Assembly: GCF_004010195.1 (NCBI RefSeq)
Contig: NC_057755.1
Location: forward strand, 5,749,474 to 5,813,473
Source: Chiloscyllium plagiosum
Taxonomy: Eukaryota
Length of the DNA: 64,000 nt
Reading direction: 5' to 3'
In this document: in pieces, positions 2,822 to 60,274 of the stretch
Layout of the letters: each line of letters begins with the position of its first letter
How positions within the stretch are numbered: the first letter of the stretch is position 1
Position numbers and translations under genes: made by a program
Notes under the pieces: model-generated
Databases searched by the model: none
What the model was told of the DNA's origin: nothing
What the model saw: the letters and a program-made list of their open reading frames with translations, nothing else

Positions 2822-3164
2822 TTATGAAACCAGAGATTTCAAACTATTCTTAATTTTCTCCCTGAAGTTAGACTGAGTTGCTGCATAAGTAAATGTGATT
2901 GTCCAACAATGTAAATTGCGGAACATGAATCCAAAATCTTGCGATATTATTTCAGACTCTGTGAACATGTTTCTCTAAAGTCGTACCAAAAAATAAAATG
3001 AGGCTTATCTATCACAGAAGTCTAAAACTACCAGATATGCTGAAAAGCAATATGAGTCTTCTGCCTGCTTTGTATTTTGGGTTGCTGTGCTTCTCTACAT
3101 TGCTGCAGGCTTTCAGTTCATTTTGGATTGGGCTGGGTACCAAAGTTTGTCTGACAGAGTAGTT
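2822..3164 (-). pseudogene. GPR139-like pseudogene fragment (ICL3 to C-terminus), paralog of gene B
   Basis: Aligns by eye to 54924-55265 (ttatgaaaccagagatttcaaa is shared at the stop). Residual ...NPKYKAGRRLILLFSISGSF in ORF 3012..3305; frameshifted, and the 5' part is missing. Confidence 0.85.
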
Positions 3165-5277
3165 AGGAGGATGCTGAAAAACACAGCAAATCAGGCAGCA
3201 CCAGGAAGTGCAGAAGCCGAGTGTTTTTCGACGGAAATGGTTCACTTCTACCTTCTGGAGGAAAGGAATGGATTGACAATAGAAACTGTTTTCACCACAA
3301 ACCAACAGATCCCGTTCGTGTGTTTGACAAAGTAGAGATATACCTCATTGTCCTCAGAGAGAATGAGACAATTGTGACAGATATCCATGCTTCCTCTAAT
3401 TTCCATTCCGGAATTTTCTATTGACCACACCTGCTCCAGTGATTCTCTGCATGCCTTCACAATAAATTGATTCAGAGAGATGTTTCCCATCAAACACTGT
3501 GGCGTATTGAATTTGCAACTGTTTTCAATCCATTAATATTTGCGACAATCTTCACAATGCTTTCCGTGTGTTTGTTGATAATATTCATGATCCTTTATAT
3601 AGTTATCAAAAATGTTTTAATCATTTATCGCACTTGTAATTCTTTCTCAACTGTCATGATCCTTCATATAATACCTTACAATGTTTGCAACAATTCCTAA
3701 CATTCCATCATGTCTTGCTCTTGTCTGATATTCTATATAAAGAGTATAACCATTCAATAATTTTACAACTCTTTTTGATACTTTTCTACATACCTTTACC
3801 AATTTAGAGTGGCAGTTCGACAAACTGAGGAGCATACGGGGGCAGAGTGTGATAGATGCTAGTTACAGGGAGATGGACACACTTTAGTTTCAGTCAGGTA
3901 GTTGGCTGATCGCCAGACAGGTAATGTTAGAGAGGAATGACGTTAGACAATCATTTGACACTCATTCTATTGCATTCATCAAATTGGATAATTTATAGAC
4001 AGTAGGGGGTGAGTTGGTCGGTGTACCACGTACTAATCCACTGAGCAAAGGATATCATGCTTTTCTTGTGTACAGGAGTTTCTGCAATAACATATCTCTC
4101 ATCATTGCGAATTGGCTGCAATTTATCGGGCAAGTAATGAACGCTGCTTCTAAACCACGAAATTTTGAAATGTGCATTGCTTATAAAGTAACACGATTAG
4201 ATCCGCAGCACTATAAGTGTTGTTTCTTCTCGAAACTGATAAGTGTTCTTTGTCTAGCATACTTTTTGTATAGCGTAGTTATGCAGGAAGGCAACTATTT
4301 TTTTCTGGAAGAACTGATGGTACTTTTCTTCTGCACATCCTGGCTGGTTCAGAATTTCTTTCACAATGAGTTTGAGTGGTCAAGACGTTTCTTCGACGTG
4401 TCTATGCACAATAGTTCTTTCACAGTGAATCATATTTCTCGGTATCAGCGTTCAAATCGAGTTCAAATCGATGCTCAGATATAGTGAGATGAGTGAATAT
4501 CCACTGTGCAGTGTTATTATTCATTTCAATAAACAGGAAAAAAGATGATTAAAAGCCCCAATTGTAGATTGGAACTGAAATCTCAACTGGCAAGTTATAA
4601 CAGCTTAACAAAAACAAAATGGAAGGCACACCCAAAGAAGAAGGTGTTAGGAATGTTGAAAATGAGGTGGTTTCAAAATTCGACTGTGGGTGAAGGTATA
4701 TAACAGTAGGAAAACTAGACTTTTTTGTTTACGAATCAATGACAGAGATTGAATGAATTGTGGAAAACAGATTTGAATATTGTACGATTTCTTCTCAGTT
4801 GCTTATAACACTGGTCAATTCAGATGCCTGAGTGAATGCAGTTTGAAACATTTTAAGTTTAATCTTTGCATATCTTTTCTGTGGTCGACAGTCACTGAAC
4901 ATATTCACATGAGGCTGCCACTGTGATTTCAGCAAAAGAACATAAATTTTTTAATGAGAAAATCCAAAGCTATAAATGGATTAAAATTGGAAACATTTTT
5001 AAAAAGAAACGCAAAACAAAGACTCAATCCATTGGCCAACAACATCATTTACAGATACTTAGTCTCAGTGACATATTAGTCGAATTTAAAAACATTAATT
5101 TCATGTATACCAGATTACTTCCAAATTTGAGTGACCAAGTTTGTCATGCTGAAGACATGGACTTCTTTTCAGTGAACGCAGACAGGAAAGTTCCACAAGC
5201 TCTTTGAACCCGTTGCATGACCTGTTATATCTTCAATTCGAAGTCAGGTCCGTGGCTTATTTGCATCGTTTAACAAT

Positions 5278-6146
5278 TTAATTAAATGGGTACTCTACTC
5301 CCTGGATTAACTCATCTCTGGCGTTAATTTGCGTTCGTTCGTATATGCAGGTTTTGGTGCACGAATTCAGAAGCCGTAGCATCAATCCAATTTCTGGAGA
5401 GACAAATGTTGGATCGGTTAAAGTCATGTCCTCGTAATTATAGTTTACTTCTGGCTGGAATAAAGAGCGTATGACATGTGTCATCCAGAATACTATAGAA
5501 TTAGCAGACAACGCAAATAGCAAGCTGATGGATGTCCTCCGTTCAACGCCTCTGGAACAATATTATTCTGTCCATTTCCCTGGTTCTGAAGCCAACAGCG
5601 GATGTCGTTGGTCTGTTAATATGCCTGATAGTCAGAACATTGAATATCAAAATCAATATAATTGGAAGCAGTCTATAGTTATAATGTGAATCCATTCATT
5701 CACTTTCCAAAATACTGATATGTAATCGTCTGATATAATGACGGAAAACAATGGCACATTGTCAATAACAACTGCAGGAGCTAATGCAAAATAACAAGCA
5801 ATTAACCCCAAACAGTAGACCTCACTCACAATTACTATAACCACAAGTGCAGTTCTGTTATTGCAATATCTCGCTCTTAGCTTCTGGCAACAAATCAATA
5901 CAAACCGGCCAAATGTGAAAGCAAACGTAACCAAACTGAGCAGTCCAGGGCTGCGAGGCAAAGAACAACTCTAAATGCACACACAGACGTGATGGACAGG
6001 AAACTAACTGGGAAATAAAGATTATTAATTTGTGTAAGGATGACAGTAAGGATGACGAGAAGTAGATCTGCTGCAGACCTTGCCAACAAATAGCGAGTGA
6101 TGCATGGGGAGAGCCCACAATTGCCTCGATTCAGGATCAAAGTTAA
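5278..6146 (-). pseudogene. GPR139-like pseudogene C1, exon 2
   Basis: Acceptor ...tttgtacag|TT AAC at 6147. GPCR sequence is spread over several frames: ILNRGNCGLSPCITRYLLARSAADLL..DCSVW (5895..6140), FTFGRFVLICCQKLRARYC (5653..5961), LNSCTKTCIY..RDELI (5278..5523). Multiple frameshifts. Confidence 0.9.
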
Positions 6147-6759
6147 CTGTACAAAAAAAGTACAGAAACGTACACTTTTTCACGACTGGCGTCAAAGCAG
6201 AAAGATATGCTCGATATGTCTGTCAAACTGTACCAGTTACCTCAGATTAATATATTAATTCAATTAAATGATATATGACTCAAGCAAATCAGAATTAAAC
6301 AAACCAATAGACAGAACGAATAAATAAATTAATAAATAAGTAAGGACCAAAATTCGTAAAAAATGAAATATTGTAATGCAAATCACTCATCTGACCGTTG
6401 CAGAGCAATCTTTAAAAGATTCTCCATGCTTATGATACTGTTGGTAGACAAAAAAAGTAAATGCAAATCGGAATAATGACAAGATATTTTCCATTTAATG
6501 ACCCCATCAGGGATGTGGTACATGAACAGCCACGACAATAAATACTTTCTGACATAGAACTGAGATGGTCGAATTAAGTTCTCGGATTAAGTTCTTGGAC
6601 TGACCTGTCATTGAAAGGGGTTCCTTGCTTTCTCACTTCCGCTAGTCACAAATCTGCAGGCATTCTTGATAAGGGACGGTGCAGAAAGCATGGGAGCACA
6701 TGAGGATCATTGTGGAACTCCTTACATCTGGTAGTTTTTTTGAAACGTAATACTGTAAT

Positions 6760-7230
6760 TAGAAGGTTGGATTGCAGTCCGATTGATTGCCACCACATGC
6801 ACAAAACATATATGCCACCCATCCATTCTCCCCATCTCCACCAGCACTCACTAACAGCAGTGTGCACGACCTCCAAGATTCAGTGCGGATATCCATCTAA
6901 GTTTCATAGACAGCAAATTCTACATCCACAAATAATTCCTTCCAGAAGAGTAAGGGTATCTGATTCACAGAAACACCACCCCCAGCCAGTTCCCCTCGAA
7001 GCCACTCACCATCTTGACTTGGAAATGTATTGTTTTACTTTGCTGTTGCTGGGTAAAAATCCTGGAACACTTATCACCCCGCTCCCCCCGGCAGTGTGAG
7101 TCACCCCACAGCGTGTGGATTGCAGTGGTTCAAGAAGGCAGCTCAGCACTGCCTTCTAAAGGAGCAATTATCAACAGGCAAGTAATGTTGGTCAACCAGT
7201 GATGCTCGCATCCCACGCACGAGTGAAAAA
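6760..7230 (+). mobile_element. Old CR1/L2-group LINE 3' fragment
   Basis: Shares blocks (ccactcaccatcttgacttggaaat; ggttcaagaaggcagctc) with 10420-10900 and 30740-31110; HHxx.AVCT-type ORF2 C-terminal remnant. Confidence 0.65.
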
Positions 7231-8192
7231 CCAAATGGCTCGTCATTGTTCAAATTTCAGTTTGAACATATAAATTAGTGATAAAATAACTTTTATCTGT
7301 CAGGTTACATTTTGTGACATGAATTGAAAGTGGTGTTTTGGATGGAATGTCCAAAGAAATGATTCAGCACCCGAAGTCCACTTCCAGCATCAAAGAGTTT
7401 ATTAATTTTACACGGATATGAGGAAACGTCTGGTGTTGCAGAAGCTTCTCAACTGAATAAATGAAAGACATAAACTTTTATATATTCATTTTATCATGCT
7501 TTCAGAAAAGTCAGACCACTTTTATCATTAATTAGTTAAATACACACGAAATTCATTTAAGCATGTGACAGTGTGGTCTTTGATGGACAATCTTCATGGA
7601 CGGCCCTCAGTGTTCAATGATCTCATGACGCTTCCCAGTCCCTATTAACTCTATCCTCGGGGCTTCCACAATGCATGCTACATTTAACCATAACCAAATG
7701 TTGCTAACGCCTGCATCTGGACATCAATCTCCTTCTCGCAGAGTGGTGTCCCTCCCTTACTCTTCAAAGGATCTTTACTGGAATCTCTTCAATATATATA
7801 TTCACACTGTCAACTAATTGACATGGAAATTTCAACCAGTGTAAATTTATTTCTGATGGATCTCAGACATTAAGCCACTGGGCCTGGAATTCTTCAATCA
7901 CCATAATCATGTTCCCCTTCATAAGATATTTATTCTCGTGGCTGCCAATGTACTAATTTGTTGATGGGGGTCCATTGATGCGAAATACCTTATCTGGCTA
8001 TTTCTGTATCAACACGACACCTACATGTTTGCAACAGGACTCTTTATGTATGATCTTAATCTGTTACTTTGGACATATGTCTACAAATCTAGAAGTGCCC
8101 TAAAGTTAGAAGCTAGAACTTACAGCTTTCTTCACTACTACGTAAAACCAGCAATTTCTCAGTTCACTGATAACCACTTGAGGCCGTCTTTC

Positions 8193-8425
8193 TAGCGATG
8201 GAAACGAGGTGAGCCAGATGGGCCGCACAGAATCTGAGCTGCCTTACTGTGGTTGTTAACCTGATCCAATCAGCGAGCCGTGGTGTAGAGGCATATACTG
8301 GGGTGTCACAGGTTGTCTTCTCTCTGAGAGCTGGCACTGAGGAAACCGGAACAGTTTCATGTACTATGCAGCTGTAAATAAATGGGCACGAGGTGATCGA
8401 TTCCGGCCTCTGTTGAGTTATTTCA
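8193..8425 (+). mobile_element. Solo LTR-like element (~235 bp)
   Basis: CCAAT, AATAAA and a terminal ttatttCA. Homologous to the split minus-strand copy at 31194-31310 plus 34162-34270. Confidence 0.6.
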
Positions 8426-8499
8426 ACCTTGTGTAACTTTCAGCCATGGCAGGCTCAACGTCAGTAAGGAGAAAGCAGCAAATTGGTGTTAAGACGTAT

Positions 8500-9832
8500 A
8501 TAGAGTCATAGAGTCACAGCGACGTACAACATGGAAACAGAACCTTCAGCCCAACCCGTCAATGCTAAACAGATATCCTAACCTAATCAAGTCCCATTTG
8601 CCAGCACTTAGACCAAATTCGTCTCAATCCTTCTTATTCAAATACCCATCCAGATGCCTTTTAAAGTTTTCAATTGTATCAGACACCACCATTTCCTCTG
8701 TCAGCTCATTCGGTGCATGCACCACTCTCTGTGTGTAAAAGGTGCCCCTAATGATCCTTTTTTATATTTCCCCTTTCACCTTAAACCTTTCCCCTCTATT
8801 TCTGGCCTCGCCCAACCCAGTGAAAATACCTTATCTATTTATCCTATGATTTTATGATTTTATAAACTGAGCTGAGGTCACTCCTCAGCGTCTGACGCTC
8901 AAGAGAAAGCATCACTAACCTATTCAGCTTCCCCCTCTAGCTCAAAACCTCCAATCTACACAACATCCTTGTAACCCTGTTCAGAACACTTTCAAGTTTC
9001 ACAACATCCTTCAAATTTGCAGGAGATCCGACATTGCACACGATGTTCCAAAAGTCGATGAAACGATACCCTGTACACCCGCAACATGACCTTCCATCTT
9101 CCATTATCAATGTGCTGACCAATAAAGGAAAGCATGCCAAACGCCCTTTTCACTATCCTATCTACCTGGGACTCTATTTTCCAGGAACTATGAAGTAGCG
9201 CTTCAAGGTCTCTTTGTTCAACAACACTTCCTAGGACCTTATCATTAATTGTAAAAGTCCCGTCCCAGTCTTCCTTTCGAAATCGCAGCACCTCGCATTT
9301 AGGTTCCCTACAGCGTGGAAAGAGGCCCATCGGCCCAATTAGTCCACACCGACCCTCCGAAGTGTAACCCATCTACCCACTAACCTATGACGAATGCAAC
9401 TATCGCTATGGGCAATTCAGCATGTCCACTTCACCTGACCTGCACATCTTTGGATTGTGGGAGGAAACCGGAGCACCCAGAGGAAACCCACGCAGATACA
9501 GGGAGAATGTGCAAACTCCACATAGACTGTCACCCGAGGCTGCAAGCGAACCTGGGACCCTGGTGCTGTGAGGCAGCAGTGCTAATTACTGAATCACCGT
9601 GCCGCCCATTTGCTAACCTCCATCTTCCATTCGTCAGCCCATTGGACCATCTGATCGAAATCACATTTTGGAATGAGGTAATCTTCTTTGCTATTCACCA
9701 CAACTCCATTCTTGATGTCATCCACAAATGTACTAACTATTCTTTCTATCTTCGCATTACAATCATTCATATAAATGAGTAAAAACATTGGATCCAGGTC
9801 TGCTACTTGTGGCATACCAATGGTCACAGGCA
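8500..9832 (-). mobile_element. CR1 LINE fragment interrupted by an HE1 SINE
   Basis: RT remnants GMPQ..FVDDIK (ORF 9594..9833) and VEQRDL..ESQVDRIVKRAFGML (8992..9372); tagagtca tail repeats at 8500. Confidence 0.88.
9301..9606 (-). mobile_element. HE1-type tRNA-derived SINE
   Basis: Minus-strand head ggcggcacggtg..., central gggtttcctctgggtgctccggtttcctcccaca, CR1-like tail; flanked by cattt at 9296-9300 and 9607-9611 (candidate TSD). Confidence 0.9.
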
Positions 9833-9929
9833 ATATGAACCATGATCGAACGGCGGAGCAATTTCATTGGGCCAACGGCCCTAATTCTGTTCCTCTACCT
9901 TATTTCTTTTGATCTTACAGACAAATAGT

Positions 9930-10900
9930 AAGTAACATTTTGATACATAGAAGAGTCAGACAATTACCATCTCTCATACATGAGTTTCTTGCCATCACCC
10001 TTTCATATTCGATGATATGACCATCACGAAATCCACCACGATCAACATTCTGGAAAATACCATTGACACAAACCTGTCATGGATTAGCCATGTAAGTATT
10101 GTTGCTACTATAAAATACAGAGGCAAGGAGTCCTGCAGCCAATCACTCATCTCTTGACTCACCAAAGCTTGTCCATCATCTACAAGGTACAAAACCTGAG
10201 TGTGTTGGAATGTTCCCCACATTCCCAAATTCAGCAACACTCAAAACCTCGAACACCATCCAGGACCATAGAAAATTCTGCAGGAGAGTCATACCAGACT
10301 CGAAAATGCAACTTTCATTGCTCACTGCATCGAAATTGCTGATCTACCGACTTCATCCAACATTTTCTTTGTCTATTGCAAATATACAGCATCTGCAGTA
10401 GTTTGACTTTCTTCCAGGACATATCAGCCCAGTTGATTGCCACCACATTCAGAAACCTTCAGTCTGTCCCCCTCCGCCACTGCCACTCAGTACGAGCAGG
10501 GTGTAGCATCTGCAAGACACATTACAGCAGCGCACCAAGGTTGCTCAGACAGCTCCCTCTCGCCCTCAAAGCCGATGAATGAGAATGACACTACTTGTAA
10601 GTTCCGTTCAAAGAACTCAACTTCCTGGCTTGGAAAAACATCACCGTTCCTTCAGTGTTGTTGGATCTTTTAAAAGACATTTGGACAGCTGTACAGAAAG
10701 GAAAGATTTAGCGGGATATGGACCAAAATAAGGCAATGCGTGTAGCTCTCCTTAGGAAACCTCGTCAGCATGAATGCATTGGACAGAAGGGTCGGTTTGC
10801 ATCCTCTATGTCAGCGTTCTGACAACGATTGGTCTGCAGTGGTTTGAGAAGGCAGCTCATCACCACGTTCTGATGTGTAACTCCACATGGGGAATAAATA
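9930..10900 (+). mobile_element. Old CR1/L2-group LINE 3' region with a nested short CR1 tail (~10670-10812)
   Basis: IYKVQNLSVLEC (YKAQVRSVMEY-like) remnant; 3' UTR blocks shared with 6760-7230. Confidence 0.6.
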
Positions 10901-11120
10901 ATGATTCAGCTTGCTTTGTGTTGGAACTAAATACTCTGCAAAATATGCGTGCAAACCTGTTTCAGTGAACGGAGGAAACAATAATACAAATTGACTGCTG
11001 GTGAAACCACTAGGATTGATCGTTTGGAAATACCAAAGCTGGGGAAATTTTGTCAAATTTCAATAAAGAATTAAGGAGCATTGTCTGACTCTTCAGTATA
11101 AAATAGGTCGAAGGAATTAT

Positions 11121-11190
11121 CGATAATGCCAACAGCTGCAAGTATCGGGTAGTAAATTTGCGTTACCTGTAAGATTACCAAGTATTTCAT
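11121..11190 (-). pseudogene. GPR139-like pseudogene C1, exon 1 (splice donor destroyed)
   Basis: Minus-strand MKYLVILQVTQIYYPILAAVGII plus G, followed by ataatt instead of gtaagt. Confidence 0.8.
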
Positions 11191-13451: not shown

Positions 13452-13915
13452 GACTGGGGAATTTTAAACAGTGAGTGGTACGTGCTAGTATCTTCATTTC
13501 GGGTTCTTGTTTGGTTGTGTAGACAAAGCTTGGGGTAGTAATGGCTCTTTCAGTCGCCAAATGTTTTGTGTAAACGAATGTTGACTTTGAATGTTTTGCA
13601 ATAGGTGTAAATGAACAAGCTGCAGGAATTTGTAGACCAACCAGCATTGGAACTGTCTGTTTCTGTCAGGAAAGCAGAGATGATTATAGCCGTAGCTCAG
13701 CATTTACATTTGCTGGATAAACCATCAGAATCTATATAAAAGGCAAGAATTCAATTGTAAATGAAGTAGCTTGAATTATCGACCAGAAATAAGGAAAGGG
13801 CAGCAGAAATGAAACACTTCAAGTTAAGATTAAAAGCAGAAGAAACAGAGCAGCATAAGAGAGGGGCAAAAGAGCAGAGAAAAAAAATAGAGAGCTTTTG
13901 AAATTCTAAAATTTA

Positions 13916-23789: not shown

Positions 23790-23859
23790 ATGAACTACTC
23801 AGCAATCTTACAGGTAGTGCGAATTTACTACCCAATACTTGCAACTATTGGCATTATTG
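23790..23859 (+). pseudogene. GPR139-like pseudogene C2, exon 1
   Basis: MNYSAILQVVRIYYPILATIGII plus G, then gcaagt (GC-type donor). Inverted paralog of 11121-11190. Confidence 0.82.
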
Positions 23860-24376: not shown

Positions 24377-27300
24377 AACATAGAACATAGAAAATTACAG
24401 CGCAGTACAGGCCCTTCAGCCCTCGATATTGCGCCGCCCCGTGATACTAATGTGAAGTCCATTCCCCCTACACTATTCCATGTTTGTCCATTTGCCTGTC
24501 CAATGACGATTTAAATGCACTTAAACTTGGCGAATCTACTACCGATGCCAGCAAAGCATTCCATACCCTTACCCCTCTCTGAATAAATAAACTACCTCTG
24601 ACACCTGTCTTATAGCTATCTCCCCTCACTTTAAAGTTGTGTTCCCTCGTGCCCTCGTGTTTGCTGTCCCCATACTTGGAAATAGGCCCTCACTGTCCAC
24701 TCTATCTAACCCTCTGATTACCTTGTATGTCTCTATTAAGTCACCTCTCAACCTTCTTCTCTCTAACGAGAACAGCCTCAAGACCCTTAGCCTTTCCTCG
24801 TAAGACATTCCTTCCATACAAGGCAACATCCTCGTAAATCTCCTCTGCACCATTTCCAAAGCTTTCACATTCTTCTTATAATGCGCTAACAAGAACTGTA
24901 CAGAATACTCCAAGTGTGGCAGTACCAGAGCTTTGTACAGCTGCAGCATAACCTCCTGGTTCCAGAACTCAATTCTTCTATTAATAAAGGCAAAAACACT
25001 GCATGCCTTCTTAACAAACCTGTCTATCTGGGTAGCAACCTTCAGGGATATGTGCACATGGACACCGAGATCTCTCTGCTCATCTGCACTCCCAAGAATC
25101 GTGACACTAGCCCACTACTTTGCATTCCGATTTCTCCAGCCAAAGTGTATCACCTCACACTTGTCCGCATTAAACTCCATTTGCCAGCTCTCAGCTCAGG
25201 TCTGCATCCTATCTATGTCTCTCTGCAACCTACTACATCCTTCGTCACTATCCACAACTCCACCGAGCTTAGTGTCGTCGGCAAATTTACTAACGCACCA
25301 TTCTAAGCCCTCATCCAGGTCATTTATAAAAATGACGAACAGCAGTGTACCCAAAACTGACTCTTACGGTAACTGGACACCAAGGGATACATGTTCCATC
25401 AACTATAACCCTCTGTTTTCTTTCAGCAGGCCAATTACTTATCCAAACTGTTATGTCTGAAATCCATATACACCACATCAACCGGTTTGCTCTCATCTAC
25501 CTGTTTGGTCACTTTGTCAAAAAAACTCACTAAGATTCTTTAGGTACGACCTAACCTTCACAAAACCGTGCTGACTGTCCCTGATCAGACTATTCTTTTC
25601 AAGATGGTTATAAATCCTATCTCTTATAACCTTTTCCAACACTTGACCAACAACTGAAGTGAGACTCACTGGTCTGTAATTACCAAGGTTGGCTCTACTA
25701 CCCTTTTTGAACAAGGGTATCACATTTGCTCTCCTCCAGTCCTCAGGCACTATTCCTGTAGACAATGATGATTTGAAGATCAATGCCAAATGCTTAGCAA
25801 TCACTTCCCTTGCTTCCCAGAGGATCCTAGGATAGATCTCATCCAGCCCAGGGGACTAGTATATTTTCACACTCTGCAGTATTTCTAATACCTCTGCCTT
25901 GTGAACCTCAATCTCTTCTAGTCTAGATGCAAGTACCTCTGTATCTTCCTCGCCAACATGTTCATTTTCTATAGTGAACACTGTCGAAAAATATTTATTT
26001 AGTGCTTCCCCTATCTCGTCTGACTTCACACACAACTTCTCGCTATTATCATTGATTGGCTCTAATTTAACTCTCGTCATTCTTTTATTCCTGACATATC
26101 TATGGAAAGCCTTAGAGTTAATCCTGATCCTACCTGCCAACAACCTCTCATATCCTCTCCTGGCTCTTCTGAGCTCATTTTTTAGGTCTTTCCTGACTTC
26201 CTTGTAAACCTCAAGCGCCCTAACTGAGTTTTCACATTTTGTCTTAACATAAGCATTCTTCTTCTCCTTGACCAGGGATTCCACTTCCTTAGTAAATCAC
26301 GGCTTACGCGTTCTATATCTTCCTCCTTGCCTGACAGATACCTACTTACCTAGGACACACAGGAGCTTTTCCTTGAATAAGCGCCACATTTTAATTTGCT
26401 CATCCCCTGCAGTTTCGTACCCCATTCTACGCTTCCGAAATCTTTCCTACTTGCATCTTAATTTCCCTTCCCCAGCTGTAATTCTTGCTTGGTGTAGTAC
26501 ACCTATCCCTTTCCATCACCAAAGTAAACCTGACAGAATTGTGATCGCTGTCTCCAAAGTGCTCACCTGCTTCCAAATCTAACACCTGCCAGGCTCGTTA
26601 CCCAGTACTAAATCTAAAGTGGCTTGGCCCCTTTTAGGCCTGTCTACATACTGTGTCAGGAAGCCCTCCTGCACTCACTGGACAAAAACTGACCCACCTA
26701 TTTTACTCGTACTGGAGCGATCCCAGTCAATATTTCGATGATTGAAACCCCCCATGACAACTCCCCTGCCTCTCTCACTCCTATCGAGAATCATCTTTGC
26801 TATCATTTCCTCTACATCACTGGGACTATTTGGAGGCCTATAGAAAACTCCCAACATGGTGACTTCTCCTTTCCTGTTTCTAACCTCAGCCCATGCTACC
26901 TCAGTTAACGTATCCCCAACCATCCTTCCTCCAACTGTAATATTGTCCCTGATCAACTATGCCACACCTCCCCCTCTTTTACCATCTTCTCTGTTCTTAC
27001 TGAAACATGTGAATCCCAGAACCTGCCACAGTCATTCCTGTCCCTGTACCTTCCATGTCTCCGTGATGGACACAACATTGAAGTCCCAGGTACCAACCCA
27101 CGCTGCCAGTTCACCCACTTTATTTCGGATGCTCCTCGCGTTGAAGTACACACACTTCAAACCAGGTTCTCGCTTGCCAGTGTCAGATACTTGATTTGGG
27201 AACTCCTTACTCTCATCCTGTTTTGTACCTGTCCTGCAATTTTGGTTCCCATCCCCCTGCTGTATTAGTTTCAATCCACCTTAATTGCCTTAGTGAATTT

Positions 27301-27766
27301 CCCCCCTCCCAGGATATTGGTACCCCTCTGGTTTAGATGAAGACCATCCTGCTTGTAGAAGTCCCACCTACACCAGAAAGAGCTCCAATTATCCAAAAAC
27401 TCGAAACCCTCCCTCCTGCACCAACCCTGTAGCCACGTATTCAACTCCTTTCTCTCCCTTTTTCTCACCTCACTAGCACGTGGCACGGGCAGCAAACTTG
27501 AGAAAACAACTCCGTTTGTCCTAGCTCTAAGCTTCCAGCCTAGCTTCCTGAATTTCGACCTTGAGTCCCCATCTCTCTTCCGACCTAGGTCGTTGGTGCC
27601 AATGTGGACCACGACTTGGGGTTTCTCTCCCTCCCCCCGAAAGATCCCAAAAACCCGATCAGAGACATCGTGGATCCTGGCACCCGGTAGGCAACACACC
27701 AACCGTGAGTCTCTCTCGTCCCCAAAGAACCTCCTAACTGTCCCACTAACTATCGAGTCCCCATAG
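24377..27766 (-). mobile_element. Long CR1 LINE with esterase-type ORF1 remnant, APE and RT domains (inactivated)
   Basis: ORF1 SGNH motifs GDSIV, CLPGAR, HIGTND, DGLHLN (27271..27780). APE: YFNARSIRNK, ITETW, FYRPPNS. RT: NYRPVSLTS, SQHGF. catagaa tail at 24377; small internal deletion near 25455. Confidence 0.95.
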
Positions 27767-28560
27767 TTAACGTTCTGCATTTCCCAGTTAATTTCTTAGC
27801 CATCACTCCTGTCTATGCCTTAAGAACTGTTCTGTTTCTTGCAGCTCTGGATGGTTCAGTTTGGTTCACAATTGCTTTCACATTTGGTCGGTTTGTACTG
27901 ATGTGTTGCCAGAAACTAAGAGCGAGATATTGTCACGAAAGAACCGTTTTTGTTGTTATAGCAACTGTGAGTGTGGTAGGTTGCTTGTGGTCAATTACTT
28001 GGTATTTTGTATTTATTCCTGCGATTATTGTTGAGAATGTACCATGGATTTGCATGACAGTACCAGAATGTTAAACATCAATATTTTGGAAAGTGCATGT
28101 ATGGAAAACACTATATTTCTACCGTTGCTTGCAATAGAATTGATTTTGATATTCAATACTCTATTAGGCACGTTTTTGCAGCCAACCGCATTCGCTCTCG
28201 CCTCCAGATCCATGAATGGAGGGAAAAATACTGGTCCAGAGTTGGTAAATCGGAGAAAATCCAACATCTTGCTCTATTGCATTGTCTGTTAATTTTATGT
28301 TGTTCCAAATGACACAAAGCATATGCCGTATCAGCTTTCAAGAAGTAAATTTTAACGATGAAGACAAGACTTTAAAATCTCCGACATTTGTCTTCCAAGA
28401 AATTGGATTCATGTAATGGCTTCTGAATTTGTTCACCAATGCCTGCATTTATGCTCTAACACAGACTAAATTCAGAGAGGAGTTAATCAATGGAATAAAA
28501 TATCTGTTTACTCGACTTGTTAAGGAATGCAATCAGAATACAGGTCTGACCTCTTTTTGA
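27767..28560 (+). pseudogene. GPR139-like pseudogene C2, 5'-truncated exon 2
   Basis: Manual translation NVLHFPVNFLAITPVYALRTVLFLAALDGSVWFTIAFTFGRFVLMCCQKLRARYC...ENVPWIC; stops at 28072-28074 and 28414-28416; ends ACIYALTQTKFREELINGIKY..TGA 28560. TM1-TM2 part absent. Confidence 0.9.
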
Positions 28561-38280: not shown

Positions 38281-38311
<31 letters not shown>

Positions 38312-38935: not shown

Positions 38936-39008
38936 ATGAAGATGATCGAAACATTTAACAATATGAGGAAATTGTATTACCTGATGCTAGCTGCCATTGG
39001 TGTTCCGG
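38936..39008 (+). CDS. GPR139-like GPCR gene A, coding exon 1 (short N-terminus and first half of TM1)
   Basis: Manual translation from ATG 38936: MKMIETFNNMRKLYYLMLAAIGVP plus 1 nt (G), followed by a canonical donor gtaagt at 39009. Its phase matches exon 2 at 43587. Too short for the ORF track. Confidence 0.88.
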
Positions 39009-43586: not shown

Positions 43587-44494
43587 TTAATTTACTTGGA
43601 ATTGTGATCCTGTCACGTGGAAAATGTGGCCTTTCCACATGCACCACTTGCTACCTGGTGGCCATGGCAACGGCAGATTTGCTCGTTCTTAGTATTGGGA
43701 TTATACCTTTGCGGGTCTGTTTGTATTATTTCCCTGGGTCTTTCCTGGAGATAACCCACATCTGTCGTGTTACCTCTTTCCTGCAGTCTGCTGCCACAGA
43801 CTGCTCTGTGTGGTTCACTGTCACTTTCTCCTTTGATCGATTTGTGGCCATTTGTTGCCAGGACCTGAAAAGAAAATATTGCACTATGAAAACTGCAGCT
43901 ACGGTTCTGGCAACAACCTGCATGCTGCTCTGTATAAAAAACATCCCCTACTTCTTCATATATGAACCTGGAATGATGATTGATGATGTACCTTGGCTCT
44001 GTGCTGTAAAGCCAAGCTCCTACACTGAGGCTGTATGGGTGGTATTTGATTGGTTTGATACGGTTTTAATCCCATTGATCCCTTTTGCTTTGATTCTATT
44101 GGTCAATGCTCTGACGGTAAGGCACATTTTAGTAACCAGTCGAGCTCGTCAAGGACTGATGAATCAGAGCAAGGGAGGGAATCTCAGAGATACCGAGATG
44201 GAGAGCAGAAGACTGTCTGTGATTTTACTCTTGACCATATCCGGCAGTTTTATCCTCTTGTGGTCGGTCAATGTTGTAGAATTTGTATATTATAACATTA
44301 CAGGTACAGACCCTGCAGATTATAATGGATCTGAGTATGTATTTGAACAAGTCGGAGAGATGCTACTGAGCTTGAGTTGCTGTACAAATACCTTTATATA
44401 CACTGTTACACAGTCCAAGTTCCGAGAGCAGCTCATGAATGCAGTGCAATACCCAATCGCATCAATTCCAAAATTAATCCTGAGAACCAACTGA
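43587..44494 (+). CDS. GPR139-like GPCR gene A, coding exon 2 (TM1-TM7); spliced product 326 aa, intact
   Basis: Polypyrimidine tract and ttgcag acceptor at 43561-43586; G|TT AAT gives VNLLGIVILSRGKCGLS, then ORF 43604..44494. Class A motifs: AMATADLL (TM2), FSFDRFVAIC (DRY variant), PLIPF (TM5), FILLW (TM6), SCCTNTFIY (TM7), QSKFREQL (helix 8). Confidence 0.92.
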
Positions 44495-49385: not shown

Positions 49386-49399
49386 CATATGCGGCTTCA

Positions 49400-51429: not shown

Positions 51430-52978
51430 GAGAAAAACAAAATAATGGAAAAATCCCTACGGCCTGATCAGGTACACCCTAGAACGCTGTGGGAATATAT
51501 AGAAATGATTGTTGAGCCTTTTGCTGAGATATTTGCATCATCAATGGTCACAGGGGAGCAGCCAAAAAACTGGAGGTTGGCTACCATGGTGCCACTGTTT
51601 AAGAACACAAGCCAAGGGAGTATAGACCAATGAACATGACTTCGGCGGTGGGCAGGTTACTAGCGGGAATCCTGAGGGACAGGATGCACATCTATTTGCA
51701 AAGATAAGGGCTGATTACGTATATTCAACATGGTTTGTGCGTGGAAAATCATGTCACACAAACTTGATTGAGTTTTTTGAAAAAGTAACAAAAAGGACTG
51801 ATGAGGGCAGAGCGATAGATGTGATCAATCGGGACTTCATAAAGGCTTTCAACAAAGTTCACCATGGGAGACTTATTAGGAAGGTTAGATCTCATGGAAT
51901 ACAGGGGGAACTAGTCATTTGGATACAGAATTGGCTCAAAGGTAGAAGAGAGAGAGTGGTGGCGGAGGGCTATATTTCAGACTGGAGGCCTGTGACCAGT
52001 GGAGTGCCACAAGGATTGGTGATGACTCCACTACTTTTCATCATTTTTGTAAATGAATTAGATGTGAGCATAAGATGTATAGTTAGTAAGTTTGCAGAAT
52101 TGGTGGTGTATGTTACTTCAGATTGCAACAGGATCTTGATCAAATCGGCCAATGGCCTGATAGGTGACGGATGGAGTATAATTTAGATAAATGTGAGATG
52201 CTGCACTGTGGGAAAGCAATTCTAAGCAGGACTTATACACTGAATGGTAACGTCAACGGGAGTGTTGTTGAACCAAGAGACACTGCAGTACAGATTCACA
52301 GTTCCTTGAAAGTGGAGTCACAGGCAGATAGAAGAGTGAAGAAGGCTTTTGATATGCTTCCTTTACTGGTCAGAGTATTGAGTACAGGATTTGGGAGGAC
52401 ATGCTGCGCCTGTACAGTACATTGGTACGTCACTGTTGGAATATTCCGTGCAATTCTGGTCTCCTTCCTATCGGAATGATGCTGTGAAACTTGGAAGGGT
52501 TCAGAAATGATTTACAGGGATTTTGCCTGGTTTGGAGGATGTGAGCTATTGGGAGAGGTTGAAAAGGCGATGGATGTTTTTCCCTTGAGAGTCGGAGGCT
52601 GACGGGTGACCTAATAAAGGTTTATGAAGTCATGAAGGGCATAGATAGGATAAATAGAGGAAGTATTTCTCCTGTGGTCGGTGGTTATTCAAAAGTAGAG
52701 GGTATAGGTTTACGATGAGAGCAGAAAAGTATAACAGAGATCTAAACGGCAACATTTCAATGCAAAGGGTGGTAGACGTATGGAATGAGGTGCCAAATGA
52801 AGTGGTGGAGGCGGGTGCAATTGCAAAATTTAAAAGGCATCTTCATGAGTATGTAAAGTGGAAGGGTCTGGGCTGAGTGCCGACAGGTGAGACTAGATTG
52901 GGTTGGGATGTCTGGTCGGTTAAGTTGGACCAAATGGTCTGTTTTCCTTTTGTACATTTCTGTGATTCTATGGCTCTT
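51430..52978 (+). mobile_element. CR1 LINE, 5'-truncated and decayed
   Basis: KSCHTNLIEFFE, DFIKAFNKVHH, VTSGVPQG, SKFA (ORFs 51412..52479); tail at ~52960-52978. Absent from the paralogous flank near 63600. Confidence 0.92.
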
Positions 52979-53154
52979 ATTGAACAAACTAGTGAATGCC
53001 AGAACTGATCAGCATGTCACATAATCGGACAAAGTTTAAATTCTTGGAGAAATGAAATGTTTATACTCACTTACAAGCATATCAGCCACAGCAAATGTCA
53101 AGTAATAGAGCATCTGGAAATGCTACAAAGGAAAAATTCCTCTTGCATTAAGAA

Positions 53155-53340: not shown

Positions 53341-54923
53341 ACAACAGCTCCTATTATCTATTCAGACTATTGCGACAAAACATTGTGTCCTGTCATTGCA
53401 CAAGTAATCTTTCTGTTCTAAGACTCAACGATATGACTATTCTATGATCGAGGCCACTTATTTTTTGCATGGACTCGAGTAGAGCCATTTTCGTTTTCTC
53501 TGAAGTACACGTGCCACAGGCAACTGTCAATAATTGTTTCCATTAATACAGCCAGTTAAGTCACAGAATCATCAAGTGGATAGAAATCTGAATGAGGGTA
53601 TTCGGCCAATCCTCCTTTTTTATTGTACATGTTCATCTTAATATTGACAATAACAATACAACCTTTTGGGACCAGTCTTCAACATGCCACAATGCTAACC
53701 TATAAGGGAAATATAAGTAAGAGTGAATACGAAAATGTAACTTCATTGAAATGATAGAGAAGTTTGCGTTTTCTAATTAATACACTGTATTTAATTCCTT
53801 TGTTTCAAAAAATATACTTTATTAATCAAAGTATCTTTATACACTAAATCACTTAATAAGTTCAGTTCTGTATAGTAGCATATGCAGAAGTGGATAATAA
53901 TTGCAGTTTGACTCAATCCAAAAAAAGAAACCAAAGGTATTTCTTACTTGTACAACAGATGTGCATGCATATATTTATATTCGAAGTAAATTCCATTTTG
54001 TATTTAGTTGTACAGTGAAATATTCTTGATTGTTAAATGCTCTTGGAATTTCAGGTACTTTTATCTTGAACATTTGCTGAAAATTGTATGAATTATGAGA
54101 ACTCATGTAATTTACATTCTCATAAAGTGATCTTAACATTCATTCCAAACAAAGAGGTGCAAGATGATATATCTTTATTTGATTCACAACGATTTGCCAG
54201 TCTAATGATGGCAGGGTGAACTACTGACCAATCAGGGCAATGCAGTTCAGGATGATTATGCCAGACGGACAAGTATTTTTTTTCCTGTTGCCTAAACAAT
54301 GCTTTTGGACGAAAGGATTGAAAGGTCGACCGAGTATCAGAATAACGGGAGGAAATTGCGATAACTGCAAATGAATGCTTTCGGTATAATTGCTATATCT
54401 GAGCAGGATGACGTTCAGCGAGATCTGAGGATGGGATGGAAGGACCTCACAGAGTGCTGAATTTGTGATTTATTGATGATAAATCGTTGTATTTGCTGAT
54501 GGCTGAACTTATATCACTTCTAACATAGAATTGGAAAGATGTTCAGTGTATAAAAAAACCCAATGCAGACACAGTAAAAATGCACTTGAAATTATTTCTA
54601 ATCAATGAATTCACAAACATTCTTATAATTTGAGATGTTTCGAATCTATTTATGAATGACACATTTATTCGATGTTCATTTGACAAGGTGAGAATTGAAC
54701 TTGTGCAGGAGTAAACATTACCAATGTTTATCGACCTCATCACAAATAACATCTATTGTATTCCAACTTTGTAGTGTCTATTCGCAATACTGTCACAACT
54801 TTGACCATAGTTACTGCAAACTCATAATTTGGTCAAACATTAAACCATCATATAGGAATTGTAAACACTGTAACACAGGCGAATGCACTCTCAGATGTGC
54901 ACATCATTCATTCATTGTATAAA

Positions 54924-55795
54924 TTATGAAACCAGAGATTTCAAAGCGTTCTTGATTTTCTCTCTGAACTTGGACTGAGCTGCTGCATAAATAAATGTGT
55001 TTGTGCAGCAACTAAAATTCCGAAACATGAATCCGAAATCTTGAAATATCAACTCGGACTCTGTGTAAAATGTTCCTTTAAAAGTGTAACGTAAGAAGTT
55101 TATGATAAACATCAACCACAAAAATATAAAACTTCCAGATATGGCGAAAAGTAAAATGACGGATTTCCTCCTGCTTTCCATCTCTGGGTCACTATTTTTC
55201 TCTCCATTACTGTGGGTTTTCAGTTCCTTACGAACTCGGCTAGATGCTAAAATGTGTCTTACAGTCAAAGTGTTGATCAACAGAATTAGAGCAAAGGGGA
55301 GCAGTGGAGTTAAAGCTTTAGCAAAGCATTCATAGCTCACCCATCCAGAATCAGAATAAAAGTTCGGTTTTACATAACAAAACCATGGTACATTGTCCAC
55401 TATCTTCACAGGCTCATAAATAAAGTAGATGGGAGTGCTTTTCAAACAGAGCAGAATGCAAGTTGTTGAAAGCATGACAGCTGCAGTTTTCTCTTTGCAA
55501 AATCGTGTTCTGAGATTAGGACAACAAACAGCTACAAATCGATCAAAAGAGAAAGCGATGGTGAACCAGACAGAACAATCTATGACTGCATCACACAAAG
55601 CATCATGAGCACTACACGCAGGAGTGATGTCCAGGAAAAACACTGGAGCTTCATAATAATAAATAACCTTTTTCAATATGACTTCAAAGATAATGACCAG
55701 GAGATCTGCGATTGCCATAGCCACAAGGTAGCGAGTAGTGCACTTTGAGACGCCACAATTTCCACGAGAGAATATCATAATTGCCAGCAAGTTAC
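54924..55795 (-). CDS. GPR139-like GPCR gene B, coding exon 2; spliced product 312 aa, intact
   Basis: Pyrimidine-rich ...cacag acceptor at 55796; G|GT AAC gives GNLLAIMIFSRGNCGVSKC, then ORF 54924..55790 with AMAIADLL, FSFDRFVAVC, PLLPF, FIFLW, SCCTNTFIY, QSKFREKI. Confidence 0.92.
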
Positions 55796-57929
55796 CTGTG
55801 TGAGAAAGAAAGGAAAAAGGTGTTGGAATTTAATCAGCGAACATCTATATCGGACGCAATCAGTATGGAATGATGGTGCACTGATTGTGGGAAGGGAACA
55901 TCAATCACAGTATTTCTGTTACTGTAGAACATGAAACTTCAAAGCTGAACGTAAAGTGATTTCACGCTGATGGATGGGTTTGTTTGAATTCTTGAACAGA
56001 TGAGCCTTCTCTGGATCGTTGCCGGACTGAGAGGAGAGAAAATTCACGCTTATACATGAGTCACAGTTCATCTTTCTGAGGTAGAGACACTTTTTGTTCT
56101 GGATGATCCTGATCTTTTTTTTCCCATTTTAACCTGAATGTCTTCCAGTGACGTAGCAGAATAAATCTTTCAGTCAGATATCAACTAATGAATACCACTG
56201 TTCACAGCATTAGTTTGCATTCAGAGTTCACTTGTCTTTCCAACATAATTCAAAATCATTTGCTTTCATTGAGTGGCTGGCTTCTGAAATTCAATTCTTC
56301 AAATGAGAGAGAGTTATTTAGATGACTGCCACAGGATTTAATCACGTGTTTAAAACTGTACACTGAATCAATGTCTGTATGATGTCACAAACTCACAGTA
56401 GGAGTAGGCCATTAGAGATTGAGATATGATCGTAGCTAATCGAGTCATCACACGTTCCATCCCACCCATAACAACTTTTCATCCATTTATATTCGAGAAC
56501 CTGTCCAACTCTGCTTCAATCTCTCTGCTTTAAGTGACTTTGCACAAATGAAGTGCAATAGACTCATGAACCTTGGTAGGTAAATTACTTATTCTCAACT
56601 CTGTGTTCTATGTGTTGCCTCTTATACCGAACCAGATAGACGGAGGTCTTGAAGCTCACACAAGAAGAAAACTCCTTGCTTTCAAACCATCTATTCCAAC
56701 TATTATTTCCATTCATCATTATTCCCAGATTCCGAAAACACTGTAATAGAACCTTAGGAATCTGGAAAAGAAAACTCTCTGTCGGGGTGCAAAGACAATA
56801 TTTTAACCCATAATAAAAGCACCGATCAAACCTGATTTCCCCACCATTACCATGCCCAGACGTGTGTCCATTCTCGTTTTTTCTCTTTCCCTGGGAATCT
56901 TCAATGTGCAGTTGACCTGGCTCCAGCTCTATTCCCAAAATAAATTTCAATCTCACTGGCATTCTGAATTGAACTCAGATTGGAGAGTTGTTTTCCATTC
57001 AGTTAAATACTGTTCTACCTACCTGCCTCTCGTTGTCTGTTTGGCGCCTGGTCCAATGTAGTTATGATTGGGCCATTGCAAAATGTGAAGCTGTCACGTG
57101 CCTAAAGTTGCACAGACGTGCAGCAGTAACAATCGCTGATTTTCAGATTGCAAGAATCGAAGACCAGCCTGTGGTGAATATTGACAATTTGCACTGCAAT
57201 GCTAACACAGGAGTGCTGGAATATGCTGGTATTCCAACACTGGAAATAGGTTCTCTTGAAGACACTTGAGCAGAAGGTCAATTACTGCATTAATAAATGT
57301 GTTGCAAGCAACAGCTCTTGTTGATGATGACATTTCGTACTGCTGACGAAAACGTCTGTATTATGAAACGGTATTGGGATTGAGAACGGGTATCGTTCAC
57401 AGTCGAATTGAATGTAAGGGTGATCCCGAAGGCCAGAACGCTTCTTCTGCTTCCTTTAGTTTTGCTACCAACATATTGACAATACTGAATGTAATAAAAC
57501 ATTCGTGATTCTAAATCGATTTCCAATGTAACAATTACCCCGCTGGAAATAAAAACGTAAGCAATATGACACAATCTATTAGGTTGTCATTTGCTCCTAT
57601 TTGGTAACCTGATCAAGACTCCCATTCCATTTTATACGTTTTTTAAAACTGAAATTCAACAGCATGTTGTCCTTTGATATCTTCCATACATAATTTTCAA
57701 CGTGGGATCACTCCCAAAACTCTTCCACGAGATATTGCTGAATGAAAGGCTGCTCCATCCTCAGTTACACTGACGTTTAGGAAAACAAAGAACTTCAGCT
57801 ACTTGAAATCTGACAATGGGACAAATATTGTTGGAGAAACTCAGGATGTCTACCACCATGCATGGAAAGTAATAAAAAAAAGTTAAACTGGTTGGGAAAC
57901 TAATCCAGTTCAGATGAATGGCGCGGTCT

Positions 57930-58330: not shown

Positions 58331-59169
58331 GTACTTACGTGTTTTTTTTTTCCCATTCATGAGATGAGGACTTCGCTAGCAATGTCAGCCTTTGTTGTCA
58401 AAATGGCAGTTAAGTGTCAACCACATTGCCATGTGGCTGGATTATCTGTAGGCCAGAAGGATGATAGTTTCTTTCCCTGAGTTTTTTCCAACAACTAAAT
58501 CATGGTCATCATGCATTCCAGATATTCAGTTGAATTCAAATTCCACTATCTGCCATGTAGAGACTGGAAACCACTGCATGGCCGAGGTTTCTTGATTAAC
58601 AGTCCAGTGATAATATCACTCGGCCATCGCCTCCCCTGACTAAATGCACTGCATGTTTGTTATTTGTGTCGAGTAAGCAGATGGACTTAGGAATATTACA
58701 GAAAGGAAACTGGCAAGCTTTTTTCATGATAGAGATGTCCCTGTATATGGGACATATCGATTAATCATGGTACAACTGCAGTTCATCTCTGTGAACCTTG
58801 AAAACCTTCTGGAAACCATTAACATAAATGCATCATAATTTATCTAATCAACAAATGTTTCAGTGAGAAAGGAATCTGAAGACGAGTTTCAACTAGTGAG
58901 TATTCCTTTGTAAATTGAATATAATGTTTTGTGACTGACTCGTGCCTCATGTAACGAACCGGTTTCGATGAGATCCACGTGAAGCTCTGAAATGACTGGA
59001 TGTTGCATTAATGGAAACATTTATGTTTTCTCATTTGTGTCTGTGACTCGAGCATCTGGGTCATGAAGAATAGGGAAGAATCTGACAGCAACGTCTAATT
59101 ATTCAGAGCATAAGAGTTCCTGATGCGTTAGAATTCCAAACAGTATCTTAGATGATGGACAACATATTT

Positions 59170-59392
59170 GCTCTGATGGACCGCCCTTTGGCTTTAGCCA
59201 AGGAGTGGCAGATGGAGTTTGACTTAGCTAAATGTGTCGTTTTGCATTTTAGGAATGCACATTTGTGCAGGCTTCAGGGGAATATTACCAAACAAAGAGA
59301 GCTTAGGACGCCGATTCGCAGTTCCTTGAAGGTGGAGTCACAGGTAGATCGTGTAGTGAAGGAGGCATTTGGTAAACTCGCACTGTTTGGTA
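59170..59392 (+). mobile_element. CR1 fragment in the gene B intron
   Basis: AKEWQMEFDLAKCVVLHF..SLKVESQVDRVVKEAFG (ORF 59152..59469). Confidence 0.8.
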
Positions 59393-60207
59393 CTGTCAGT
59401 ACTCTTATGCAATTTCTATGTAAGACTTCTACAAGGTCACTGGACAGAAAAATCTTGAGCATTTTCTAACAGATTCATAACTTAGACAATGGATACAATG
59501 TTTGGAAAGCTTGTGTCAGGCCGATGCTGCTTGCAAAGCATGTATGTACTTGCACCGTAACTCATTGCCTAATGTCTTTGCAATATCCATTATCAGTCTC
59601 TTTTTTTCTTGATATCCCATGGATGGAAATGAAGTAAAAGGGCCGGAGGTTTTCATAGGTCAGTGCAAGCCACTAGTCCAGATGAAAAACCACTGTTTAT
59701 CTTCAGCAATTGCATAAGGGAAGACAAATAAAAAAGAAAAATCCAGCACATAATATGAAAAGGCTGACTCAAATGTATGCTATTTTATATTGGAAACACC
59801 TCATTAATTCCAGTGAGAATCAAACCTTAGTAAAGTTCTACGTAAATTGGTATTCGCAATAACGTAACCGCATGCTGATAACTGTTCACAACAACATTTC
59901 GTACTTTGCACAAATATAAATGAATAGATATTTCCAATAGTTTTCCTCAGAATGTCTACATTTTTGATATCCATTTCAGCACTGGACAGCATTAACTGAA
60001 AGGAAGTAAATCGTTGACAGAAAGCATTTGAAAAACATGCAGTGATGAAACATCACCTGAAGAGATAGAGTAAAATTACAGAGATAAATCAACTGATTTG
60101 ATCCAGCAACTGAATGCCTGAAACAAGATCTGTGCAGTTGTGATCAGCACATAACCTTATCAAGCACTGTGGAACATTTATAAATCTTCGCTATTACACT
60201 TACTTAC

Positions 60208-60274
60208 CAAGCAAACCAATTATAGCAAGGACCATATAGTAGGATTTCTTTAAATCGTACATTTGAAACGCCAT
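60208..60274 (-). CDS. GPR139-like GPCR gene B, coding exon 1
   Basis: Minus-strand ATG at 60274: MAFQMYDLKKSYYMVLAIIGLL plus 1 nt (G), then donor gtaagt. Same YY..LA.IG pattern and phase as gene A exon 1. Confidence 0.88.

Follow-up and report, generated by a model that had tools for sequence, protein, structure and literature searches.

Olfactory receptors (ORs) lie in genomic clusters with high turnover and have variable ligand pockets. For cartilaginous fishes G-protein-coupled receptors (GPCRs) have been described as relatively few (PMC8455134) and the known chemosensory repertoire of sharks is small (PMC10116579, PMC11979771); only about 50-60 olfactory receptor genes have been reported in the catshark, with only 34 V2R and 4-9 of each other chemoreceptor family (PMC10116579), a receptor set that sits oddly with the famed chemical senses of sharks. 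The nematode srw receptors (Pfam PF10324) have been derived from FMRFamide/myosuppressin-type receptors and proposed as sensors of environmental peptides (PMC2576165), and GPR139 has been grouped with the FMRFamide, MIP/sex-peptide and proctolin receptors (PMC12208981). GPR139 has two exons, its zebrafish orthologue is 70% identical to the human protein (PMC7318219), and its activation by tryptophan (Trp) or phenylalanine (Phe) needs F3x33, H5x43, W6x48 and N7x38 (PMC5430874). In this study, we analysed a 64,000-nucleotide stretch of the genome of the shark Chiloscyllium plagiosum (contig NC_057755.1, positions 5,749,474 to 5,813,473, hereafter the window), which carries five receptor gene copies, G1 to G5. 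They belong to a family that is large and widespread among cartilaginous fishes, with a fixed intracellular face and variable pocket positions. By analogy with known systems, this clustered birth-and-death family of class A GPCRs may well work as a chemosensory repertoire, a reading toward which we lean on balance.

A sequence-only reading of this DNA had claimed five paralogs, two intact and three dead, and this was borne out by tblastn of the window with its two long open reading frames (ORFs) as queries together with a check of ORFs and splice sites. Exactly five receptor copies were located, with E-values of 1e-23 to 1e-102 for the better query, far beyond chance; the next match had E 0.08. 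The two ORFs, 43559-44491 (+) and 54927-55829 (-), both match Pfam 7tm_1 (75 and 86 bits, cut-off 30.5). In generic numbering anchored in G4 (C84=3.25, R109=3.50, P190=5.50, W250=6.48, N292=7.49), the class A motifs N1.50, D2.50, DR3.49-3.50, W6.48 and N7.49/Y7.53 are present, and by these motifs G4 and G5 are class A (rhodopsin-like) GPCRs. The copies and remnants, with TM denoting a transmembrane helix, are as follows:

35..100, minus strand: dead exon-1 remnant of a further copy, without ATG or donor, whose exon 2 would fall left of the window
2822..3158, minus strand: G1, pseudogene fragment of the G5 subtype, final third of exon 2, from the end of TM5 to the stop
5278..6146 (approximate), minus strand: G2 exon 2, full-length pseudogene with several frameshifting deletions
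11121..11190, minus strand: G2 exon 1, 70 nt, with a dead splice donor (AT)
23790..23859, plus strand: G3 exon 1, 70 nt, with a GC donor
27766..28550 (approximate), plus strand: G3 exon 2 remnant, pseudogene with its 5' part lost, in-frame stops and frameshifts
38936..39008, plus strand: G4 exon 1, 73 nt (67 nt from the second ATG), with a phase-1 GT donor
43587..44494, plus strand: G4 exon 2, intact class A GPCR
54924..55795, minus strand: G5 exon 2, intact class A GPCR with a short C-tail and a 7tm_1 match
60208..60274, minus strand: G5 exon 1, 67 nt, with a phase-1 GT donor
63700..63770, minus strand: dead exon-1 remnant, 69% identical to the remnant at 35-100

The splice junctions of G4 and G5 are predictions from sequence: joining 39008 to 43587 in G4 gives an open protein of 326 aa, and joining 60208 to 55795 in G5 one of 312 aa, in both cases with a GT-AG intron in phase 1. 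The first exon of 67-73 nt and the phase-1 intron in TM1 proposed earlier are thereby upheld (G4 73 nt, G5 67 nt, G2 and G3 70 nt). Among the dead copies, G1 has stops and frameshifts and its 5' part is gone, and G3 carries in-frame stops at the counterparts of G4 codons 170 and 284; the GC in place of GT at the donor of G3 exon 1 (23860-23861) may be a minor-class donor or decay. G4 (43587-44494) has odd changes at conserved sites, namely Pro at 2.60 and Leu replacing Lys/Arg in the RRKS motif, and no AATAAA or ATTAAA was seen within 3 kb past its stop; together these features make early decay or altered coupling possible. Past the G5 stop, AATAAA lies at 255 nt.

The window holds a small part of the family. 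A protein search with G4 exon 2 gave 3,054 candidates, with 1,910 proteins at the cut-off of E<=0.001, a number that may include more distant receptors. The best 120 of the 1,910 were inspected: they are 58-74% identical; sharks and rays, 11 species together, account for all of them, and nearly every one is automatically named 'probable GPR139'. Heterodontus francisci alone contributes 73 clusters at the 90% identity level among these 120, on about 20 contigs and with about 26 on one of them, as counted from the table. A second search yielded 110 clusters (50% identity level) at E<=1e-30, in which full-length identities drop from at least 38% directly to 25-32%; of 20 divergent representatives checked, 18 are from sharks, skates, rays or chimaera, two have no species and none is from a bony vertebrate. 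Two Callorhinchus proteins, P0138 and P0167, fall in different inner branches, P0138 grouping with shark proteins (support 87), and thus several lineages, or the expansion itself, are older than the split between chimaeras and elasmobranchs. G4 and G5 sit in one well-supported subclade (support 98-99), and the identity of G2 and G3 to the other subclades that they match is only 33-38%. In a run of the same species with even intron coverage (X1), 85 contigs have another letter at the conserved exon-2 position 55,559, and contig depth at conserved exon-2 spots is about 5,000-22,000 vs about 5-14 in unique sequence; this depth is not a copy number, and with the variant contigs it is consistent with many copies in this genome.

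The family probably has hundreds, and at least dozens, of intact members per genome. The possibility of only a few copies genome-wide, which the sequence-only reading had named as fatal to its proposal, does not survive 1,910 matches and at least 73 clusters in one species, and the large birth-and-death family that it had claimed finds support in the same family size and in the turnover seen in the window, where three of five copies are dead and two further exon-1 remnants lie beyond them. Several long matches, P0001, P0002 and P0005 among them, are public models with wrong or fused N-termini, apparently due to the missed first exon of 67-73 nt, and annotation-based copy counts are therefore noisy. 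The genes are already in public catalogues under their automatic name. We found no description of the expansion in the literature searched, a search that subscription journals lay outside, and a term search did not find GPR139 in the main text of PMC11979771, PMC8455134, PMC7677710 and PMC10116579 or in the supplements covered, which did not extend to the 31-tissue catshark data of PMC11979771 or to files 13-24 of PMC8455134. Expanded GPCR repertoires as such are already known; this family is new.

The automatic name is a mislabel. Queried one at a time, G4 and G5 reach E 6e-8 and 1e-5 with human GPR139, which is no better than their matches to CCK or dopamine receptors. The family profile, compared with solved structures, ranks GPR139 first at E 1.9e-16, followed by the next at 1.1e-9, and the family and two groups of single-copy relatives described below, types A and B, each rank GPR139 top by 4 to 8 orders of magnitude. 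By profile ranking, then, all three belong to a wider GPR139-like clade (GPR139/142). The intron of the family may lie at the same TM1 position as in GPR139. Likenesses to the class A orphans GPR139 and GPR142, which L-Trp and L-Phe activate (PDB 7vug, 9m42), are TM1 YY..G.P.N, TM3 S.W.T and W6.48 and, for GPR139, the two-exon structure. The family is, however, only remotely similar to GPR139, has changed pocket residues and a cysteine pair linking TM3 and the second extracellular loop (ECL2), and occurs in many copies rather than one. Cys3.25 is found in 118 of the 120 homologues and the ECL2 Cys in all 120, and the aligned residue of GPR139 at 3.25 is Asp. When the four residues needed for Trp/Phe activation were mapped onto the family through the profile-GPR139 alignment, G4 read S/D/W/E and G5 D/A/W/F, one being kept in each; of the 120 homologues, 104 keep one, 15 two, one three and none all four. 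W6.48 is kept in 120/120 and is the sole key residue kept in the 104. Judged by their sequences, the window receptors are not GPR139 orthologues, in agreement with the earlier suspicion that they are not true GPR139, which the remote match, the loss of key residues and five copies in 64 kb all favour. An ESM Atlas search returned chordate 'GPR139' clusters together with Srw-bearing neighbours, a lead only.

The first matches outside the family come from salamanders, teleosts and coelacanth; these proteins also carry the automatic name, and they represent two separate conserved genes. Type A (e.g. XP_069092602.1; P0229, P0286-P0305) gives one match per species in 20 amphibians, covering all three orders, and in sturgeon, and is the nearest non-chondrichthyan match to the family (31%). 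A search with type A returned 25 matches in all, comprising amphibians, sturgeon (46%) and then shark family members at 32-33%; type A was not seen in teleosts or amniotes among these 25. It shares with the family DPE..RR/K..S before TM6 and DR...CC after TM3, and it keeps F3.33, W6.48 and N7.39 in 20/20 amphibians, the sturgeon protein being without the Trp. These three retained GPR139 key residues hint that the ancestor may have sensed a GPR139-like ligand. In contrast to the many copies with varied, usually acidic pockets of the shark family, type A occurs once per species with a conserved basic pocket. Type B (e.g. coelacanth XP_005988539.1; P0236, P0233, P0310-P0427), automatically annotated as 'probable GPR139/142', occurs mostly once per species in sharks, sturgeon, teleosts, coelacanth, amphibians, turtles and squamates among the best 120 of 145 matches, which include no mammal or bird; it keeps Cys3.25 and the ECL2 Cys and lacks W6.48. 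Two type B models carry the name of TMEM183A isoforms, which suggests that type B adjoins TMEM183A.

Sharks have a separate type B of their own, and type B is therefore not the orthologue of the shark family; no separate shark type A turned up, and the family would accordingly take the place of type A in sharks. Trees were built from rows hand-picked from 427 proteins, GPR139 itself not included, and rooted on unnamed proteins that match the Srw profile (PF10324). The family and type A are sisters in all four trees, with Shimodaira-Hasegawa-like approximate likelihood ratio (SH-aLRT) support of 92 (55 rows) and 93 (32 rows, mixture model, quick tree) and bootstrap/SH-aLRT support of 87/93 (21 rows), and in the 21-row tree the vertebrate branch of family, A and B has a support of 100 against the unnamed outgroup. 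The approximately unbiased test leaves both alternatives standing (A+B, p 0.27; family+B, p 0.15); on these sequences type A is the likely sister of the shark family. One-to-one orthologs in bony vertebrates had been named beforehand, together with a low copy number, as an observation that would speak against the earlier proposal. Close single-copy relatives do exist there, but their relation to the family is one-to-many, and the family would therefore have expanded from a single ancient gene of jawed vertebrates and would not be a shark invention; the expansion is limited to cartilaginous fishes, the gene lineage likely not. The GPR139 label also hides two distinct orphan receptors, type A and type B, and the amphibian and sturgeon gene offers, in Xenopus, an experimental handle on the ancestral ligand. 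Electroreception, as a trait common to sharks, sturgeon and amphibians, was considered and rejected because frogs, which are not known to have ampullary organs, also keep type A.

Evidence that bears on function comes from the predicted ligand pocket, taken as a list of 29 canonical class A positions. Mean entropy in the 120 homologues is 1.71 at pocket positions; by comparison, the 171 remaining TM positions are at 0.77 (p 1e-6) and the 52 remaining positions of the extracellular half at 0.93 (p 3e-4). The excess is repeated in 57 divergent representatives counted as full-length because they cover 230 profile positions or more (2.70 vs 2.00, p 4e-4). In 20 type A proteins the order is reversed (pocket 0.05, other TM 0.47, other extracellular-half 0.45), and in 120 type B proteins the pocket is at 0.71 vs 1.01 for other TM (p 0.056) and 1.01 for other extracellular-half positions. 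All 120 homologues differ in their pocket strings, and 20 type A proteins have four strings among them. A list-free test was added because the pocket list had been written after the entropy profile was known: in the intracellular half the variability of the family tracks that of types A and B (rho 0.44 and 0.55), and in the extracellular half it does not (rho -0.11 and 0.03). The claim of a variable extracellular, ligand-facing side thus holds by both approaches. On present sequences, pocket positions are hypervariable in the shark family and nearly frozen in type A, an inverted contrast of the kind expected of a repertoire for many ligands.

The contrast is repeated in the intact pair of the window. 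Identity between G4 and G5 is 17% at pocket positions but 57% over the remainder, with a nonsynonymous rate (dN) of 0.90 in the pocket vs 0.28 in the rest, a synonymous rate (dS) of about 1.1-1.2 and a whole-gene dN/dS of about 0.27-0.35; their frame is under purifying selection, and their pocket is close to free or diversifying. By helix, mean entropy in the 120 homologues is 0.70 in TM5 and in TM6, 0.82 in TM2 and TM3 and 0.95 in TM7, and the variation sits at pocket-facing positions of TM2, TM3, TM6 and TM7, at the ECL2 tip, in the third extracellular loop (ECL3) and at the N-terminus and start of TM1. The variation proposed earlier for TM5-7 and the extracellular loops is accordingly found at pocket-facing positions of TM6 and TM7, the ECL2 tip and ECL3, but not in TM5 and TM6 as helices. 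Pocket charge is usually net acidic in the family (median -2; G4 -5, G5 -3), and type A, with an almost invariant pocket, is at +2 in 20/20. Asp3.37 is present in 104/120 homologues and 42/57 representatives, Asp5.42 in 91/120 but only 14/57, and Asp is often found at 5.39/5.42. Asp5.42 is the amine contact in fish trace amine-associated receptors (TAARs) (PMC4695389). An acidic pocket with Asp at 3.37, and often at 5.39/5.42, leads us to predict a ligand with a basic group for the G4 subclade.

Transcription was approached by matching RNA reads to G5 at 82% likeness. In run X5, a single-cell run of the same species of which 2% was read, 10-16 reads fall at two conserved exon-2 spots, none close to G5, and their loose ends translate to a different family subtype that is also present among the family proteins. 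Run X7, taken as RNA by guess, has 5-6 paralogue contigs at conserved exon-2 spots and none in unique intron sequence, and no read crosses the G5 splice junction in the runs matched. Run X6 yielded no matches at all, and a look for sequencing runs with G4 exon 2 listed none of RNA; neither result carries weight for or against transcription. Some family members appear to be transcribed in C. plagiosum.

Like the OR, TAAR, V1R/ORA and V2R/OlfC families, the shark family is clustered, with high turnover and a variable pocket; unlike them, it has an intron in TM1 and a different ancestry. The Pfam scan gave no olfactory-receptor match for G4 or G5, only 7tm_1, and no OR, TAAR, V1R, V2R or srw receptor stands near the top of the profile ranking of solved structures; membership in these five families was ruled out on these two grounds. 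With nematode srw it has in common a large birth-and-death repertoire, but the window proteins and two scanned family members match only 7tm_1 and not Srw, and srw is an independent expansion that serves as an analogy only. It is from this analogy, and from the mismatch between shark behaviour and the small known repertoire, that we prefer chemosensation at body surfaces, with slightly more confidence than doubt. On this view the G-protein-facing side is constant from copy to copy and the predicted ligand pocket is peculiar to each, small molecules or peptides of various kinds, external or surface-borne, would be sensed by separate copies, and constant duplication and loss would renew the repertoire. 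Such receptors would descend from the same old gene as amphibian and sturgeon type A, whose pocket resembles that of the aromatic-amino-acid sensor GPR139; their ligands would have a basic group, as in amines or the amino groups of amino acids and peptides, and they would putatively be expressed in sensory or barrier epithelia such as nose, taste or solitary chemosensory cells, gill, skin and gut. A bolder version, which we put forward tentatively and regard as rather doubtful, is that cartilaginous fishes would have here their principal set of chemoreceptors, an additional chemosensory family of vertebrates hidden as 'probable GPR139'. It would outnumber the OR, TAAR, V1R and V2R genes known from sharks, all four combined, several times over, and would have arisen more than 400 million years ago, in parallel to nematode srw, from a single GPR139-like receptor for amino acids or peptides that amphibians and sturgeon still have once. 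In either form, a family of dozens to hundreds of members with a hypervariable pocket alters the GPCR count of these fishes, and its role is testable in existing tissue RNA-seq.

Several observations weigh against a chemosensory role or against the pocket evidence for it. Immune and nociceptor GPCR families such as FPR and MRGPR show the same genomic pattern. Catshark olfactory neurons are reported to be nearly all TRPC2/Go microvillous cells, and V2Rs to dominate (PMC10116579). G5 itself was not detected, with 1 of 142 matched reads in X5 at >=99%, and the X5 reads carry no tissue label and are ambiguous in strand owing to library chemistry. The sole intact DNA pair, with a pocket dN of 0.90 vs a dS of about 1.1-1.2 and with dS in the pocket itself not computable, gives no demonstrated dN/dS above 1. 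The pocket list is a generic one drawn up after the entropy profile was known, numbering in TM4 is approximate, and the AlphaFold model (mean predicted local distance difference test score 50.5) is too poor for pocket geometry, which rests on numbering. The 120 homologues are the top matches to G4, 73 of them from one species, and hence are not independent, and TM1, outside the pocket, accounts for eight of the 20 TM positions with the highest variability.

Clustering, turnover and pocket diversity would equally be predicted if the family were an immune or tissue surveillance repertoire, in which leukocytes, mast-cell-like cells or sensory nerve endings respond to microbial or damage-derived peptides as mammalian FPR and MRGPR do. 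MAS1-related receptors have been reported missing in cartilaginous fishes (PMC8455134), which may leave that niche open, and paralogue reads were found in a single-cell library; however, one 4,750-character supplement of a shark spleen single-nucleus paper has no GPR139 entry, and no sequence link to FPR or MRGPR appeared among the 60 solved structures listed. We consider this account unlikely. Genomic drift, in which segmental duplication in repeat-rich clusters produces redundant, decaying copies whose pockets vary through lost ligand constraint, is quite unlikely. Three of five copies are dead, the copies lie within ancient duplications in which flanks and coding remnants have diverged to the same extent (67-72% identity), 11 of 141 well-conserved positions are altered in G4 and 26 in G5 vs a family median of 5, G5 is undetected in RNA and pocket dN/dS does not exceed 1. 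On the other hand, whole-gene dN/dS between G4 and G5 is about 0.3, open reading frames of the family persist in chimaera as well as in sharks, skates and rays, and the pocket varies more than other positions of the extracellular half, lipid-facing ones included, which is unexpected from lost constraint alone; drift explains the dead copies, and the pocket excess less well. That these receptors respond to internal metabolites or neuropeptides in the manner of GPR139 and GPR142 (Trp/Phe; brain, pancreas, gut), with copies added for dosage or for specialisation between tissues, seems very unlikely. GPR139 is the best solved relative, W6.48 is universal among the 120 homologues and the likely sister type A keeps F3.33, W6.48 and N7.39 in all 20 amphibians, but within the family itself only one of the four Trp/Phe residues remains in 104/120 and in each of G4 and G5, all four remain in none, and receptors for endogenous ligands (types A and B) occur once per species with conserved pockets.

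Within the window, the three divergent subtypes described earlier can be confirmed: G4, G5 with G1 (same short tail), and G2 with G3, the last two being 72% identical in DNA and 50-56% identical to G4 and G5. The intracellular motifs reported as conserved are so only in part, as FDRF reads FGRF in G2 and G3 and the motif of TM1 and the first intracellular loop is lost in G1 and G3. G1 and G5 lie in a direct duplication, block 232-3157 resembling 53505-55264 at 68-72% identity. G2 and G3 form an old inverted head-to-head pair, in which 4579-6028 and 10622-11563 correspond to 29234-27767 and 24378-23413 with 67-68% identity across the exon-1 and exon-2 blocks. The exon-1 remnants at 35-100 and 63700-63770, which fall outside the region 2822..60274 marked out earlier, are alike over about 190-230 nt, and their position at both ends of the window indicates that the cluster extends past both. 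One mobile element touches a copy directly:

24380..27795, minus strand: LINE (long interspersed nuclear element) retrotransposon with reverse transcriptase pieces and a GDSL-esterase ORF1

This element, presumably of CR1 type from its architecture, occupies the expected place of the G3 intron end and of the first ~40 codons of exon 2. A Pfam scan of 81 other ORFs of the window gave five matches, all to retroelement domains, and there is therefore no flanking marker gene for synteny; Rfam and tRNA scans of the window found no Rfam family and no tRNA. The window is repeat-rich animal sequence. Further LINE copies lie at 14113-15643 (with a 264-base N gap at 14384-14647), 18470-20000 and 51400-53000, a fragment of an RNase H-bearing retroelement of the long terminal repeat (LTR) type at 20808-21287, and a degenerate 33-bp minisatellite of about 12 copies at 48746-49150.

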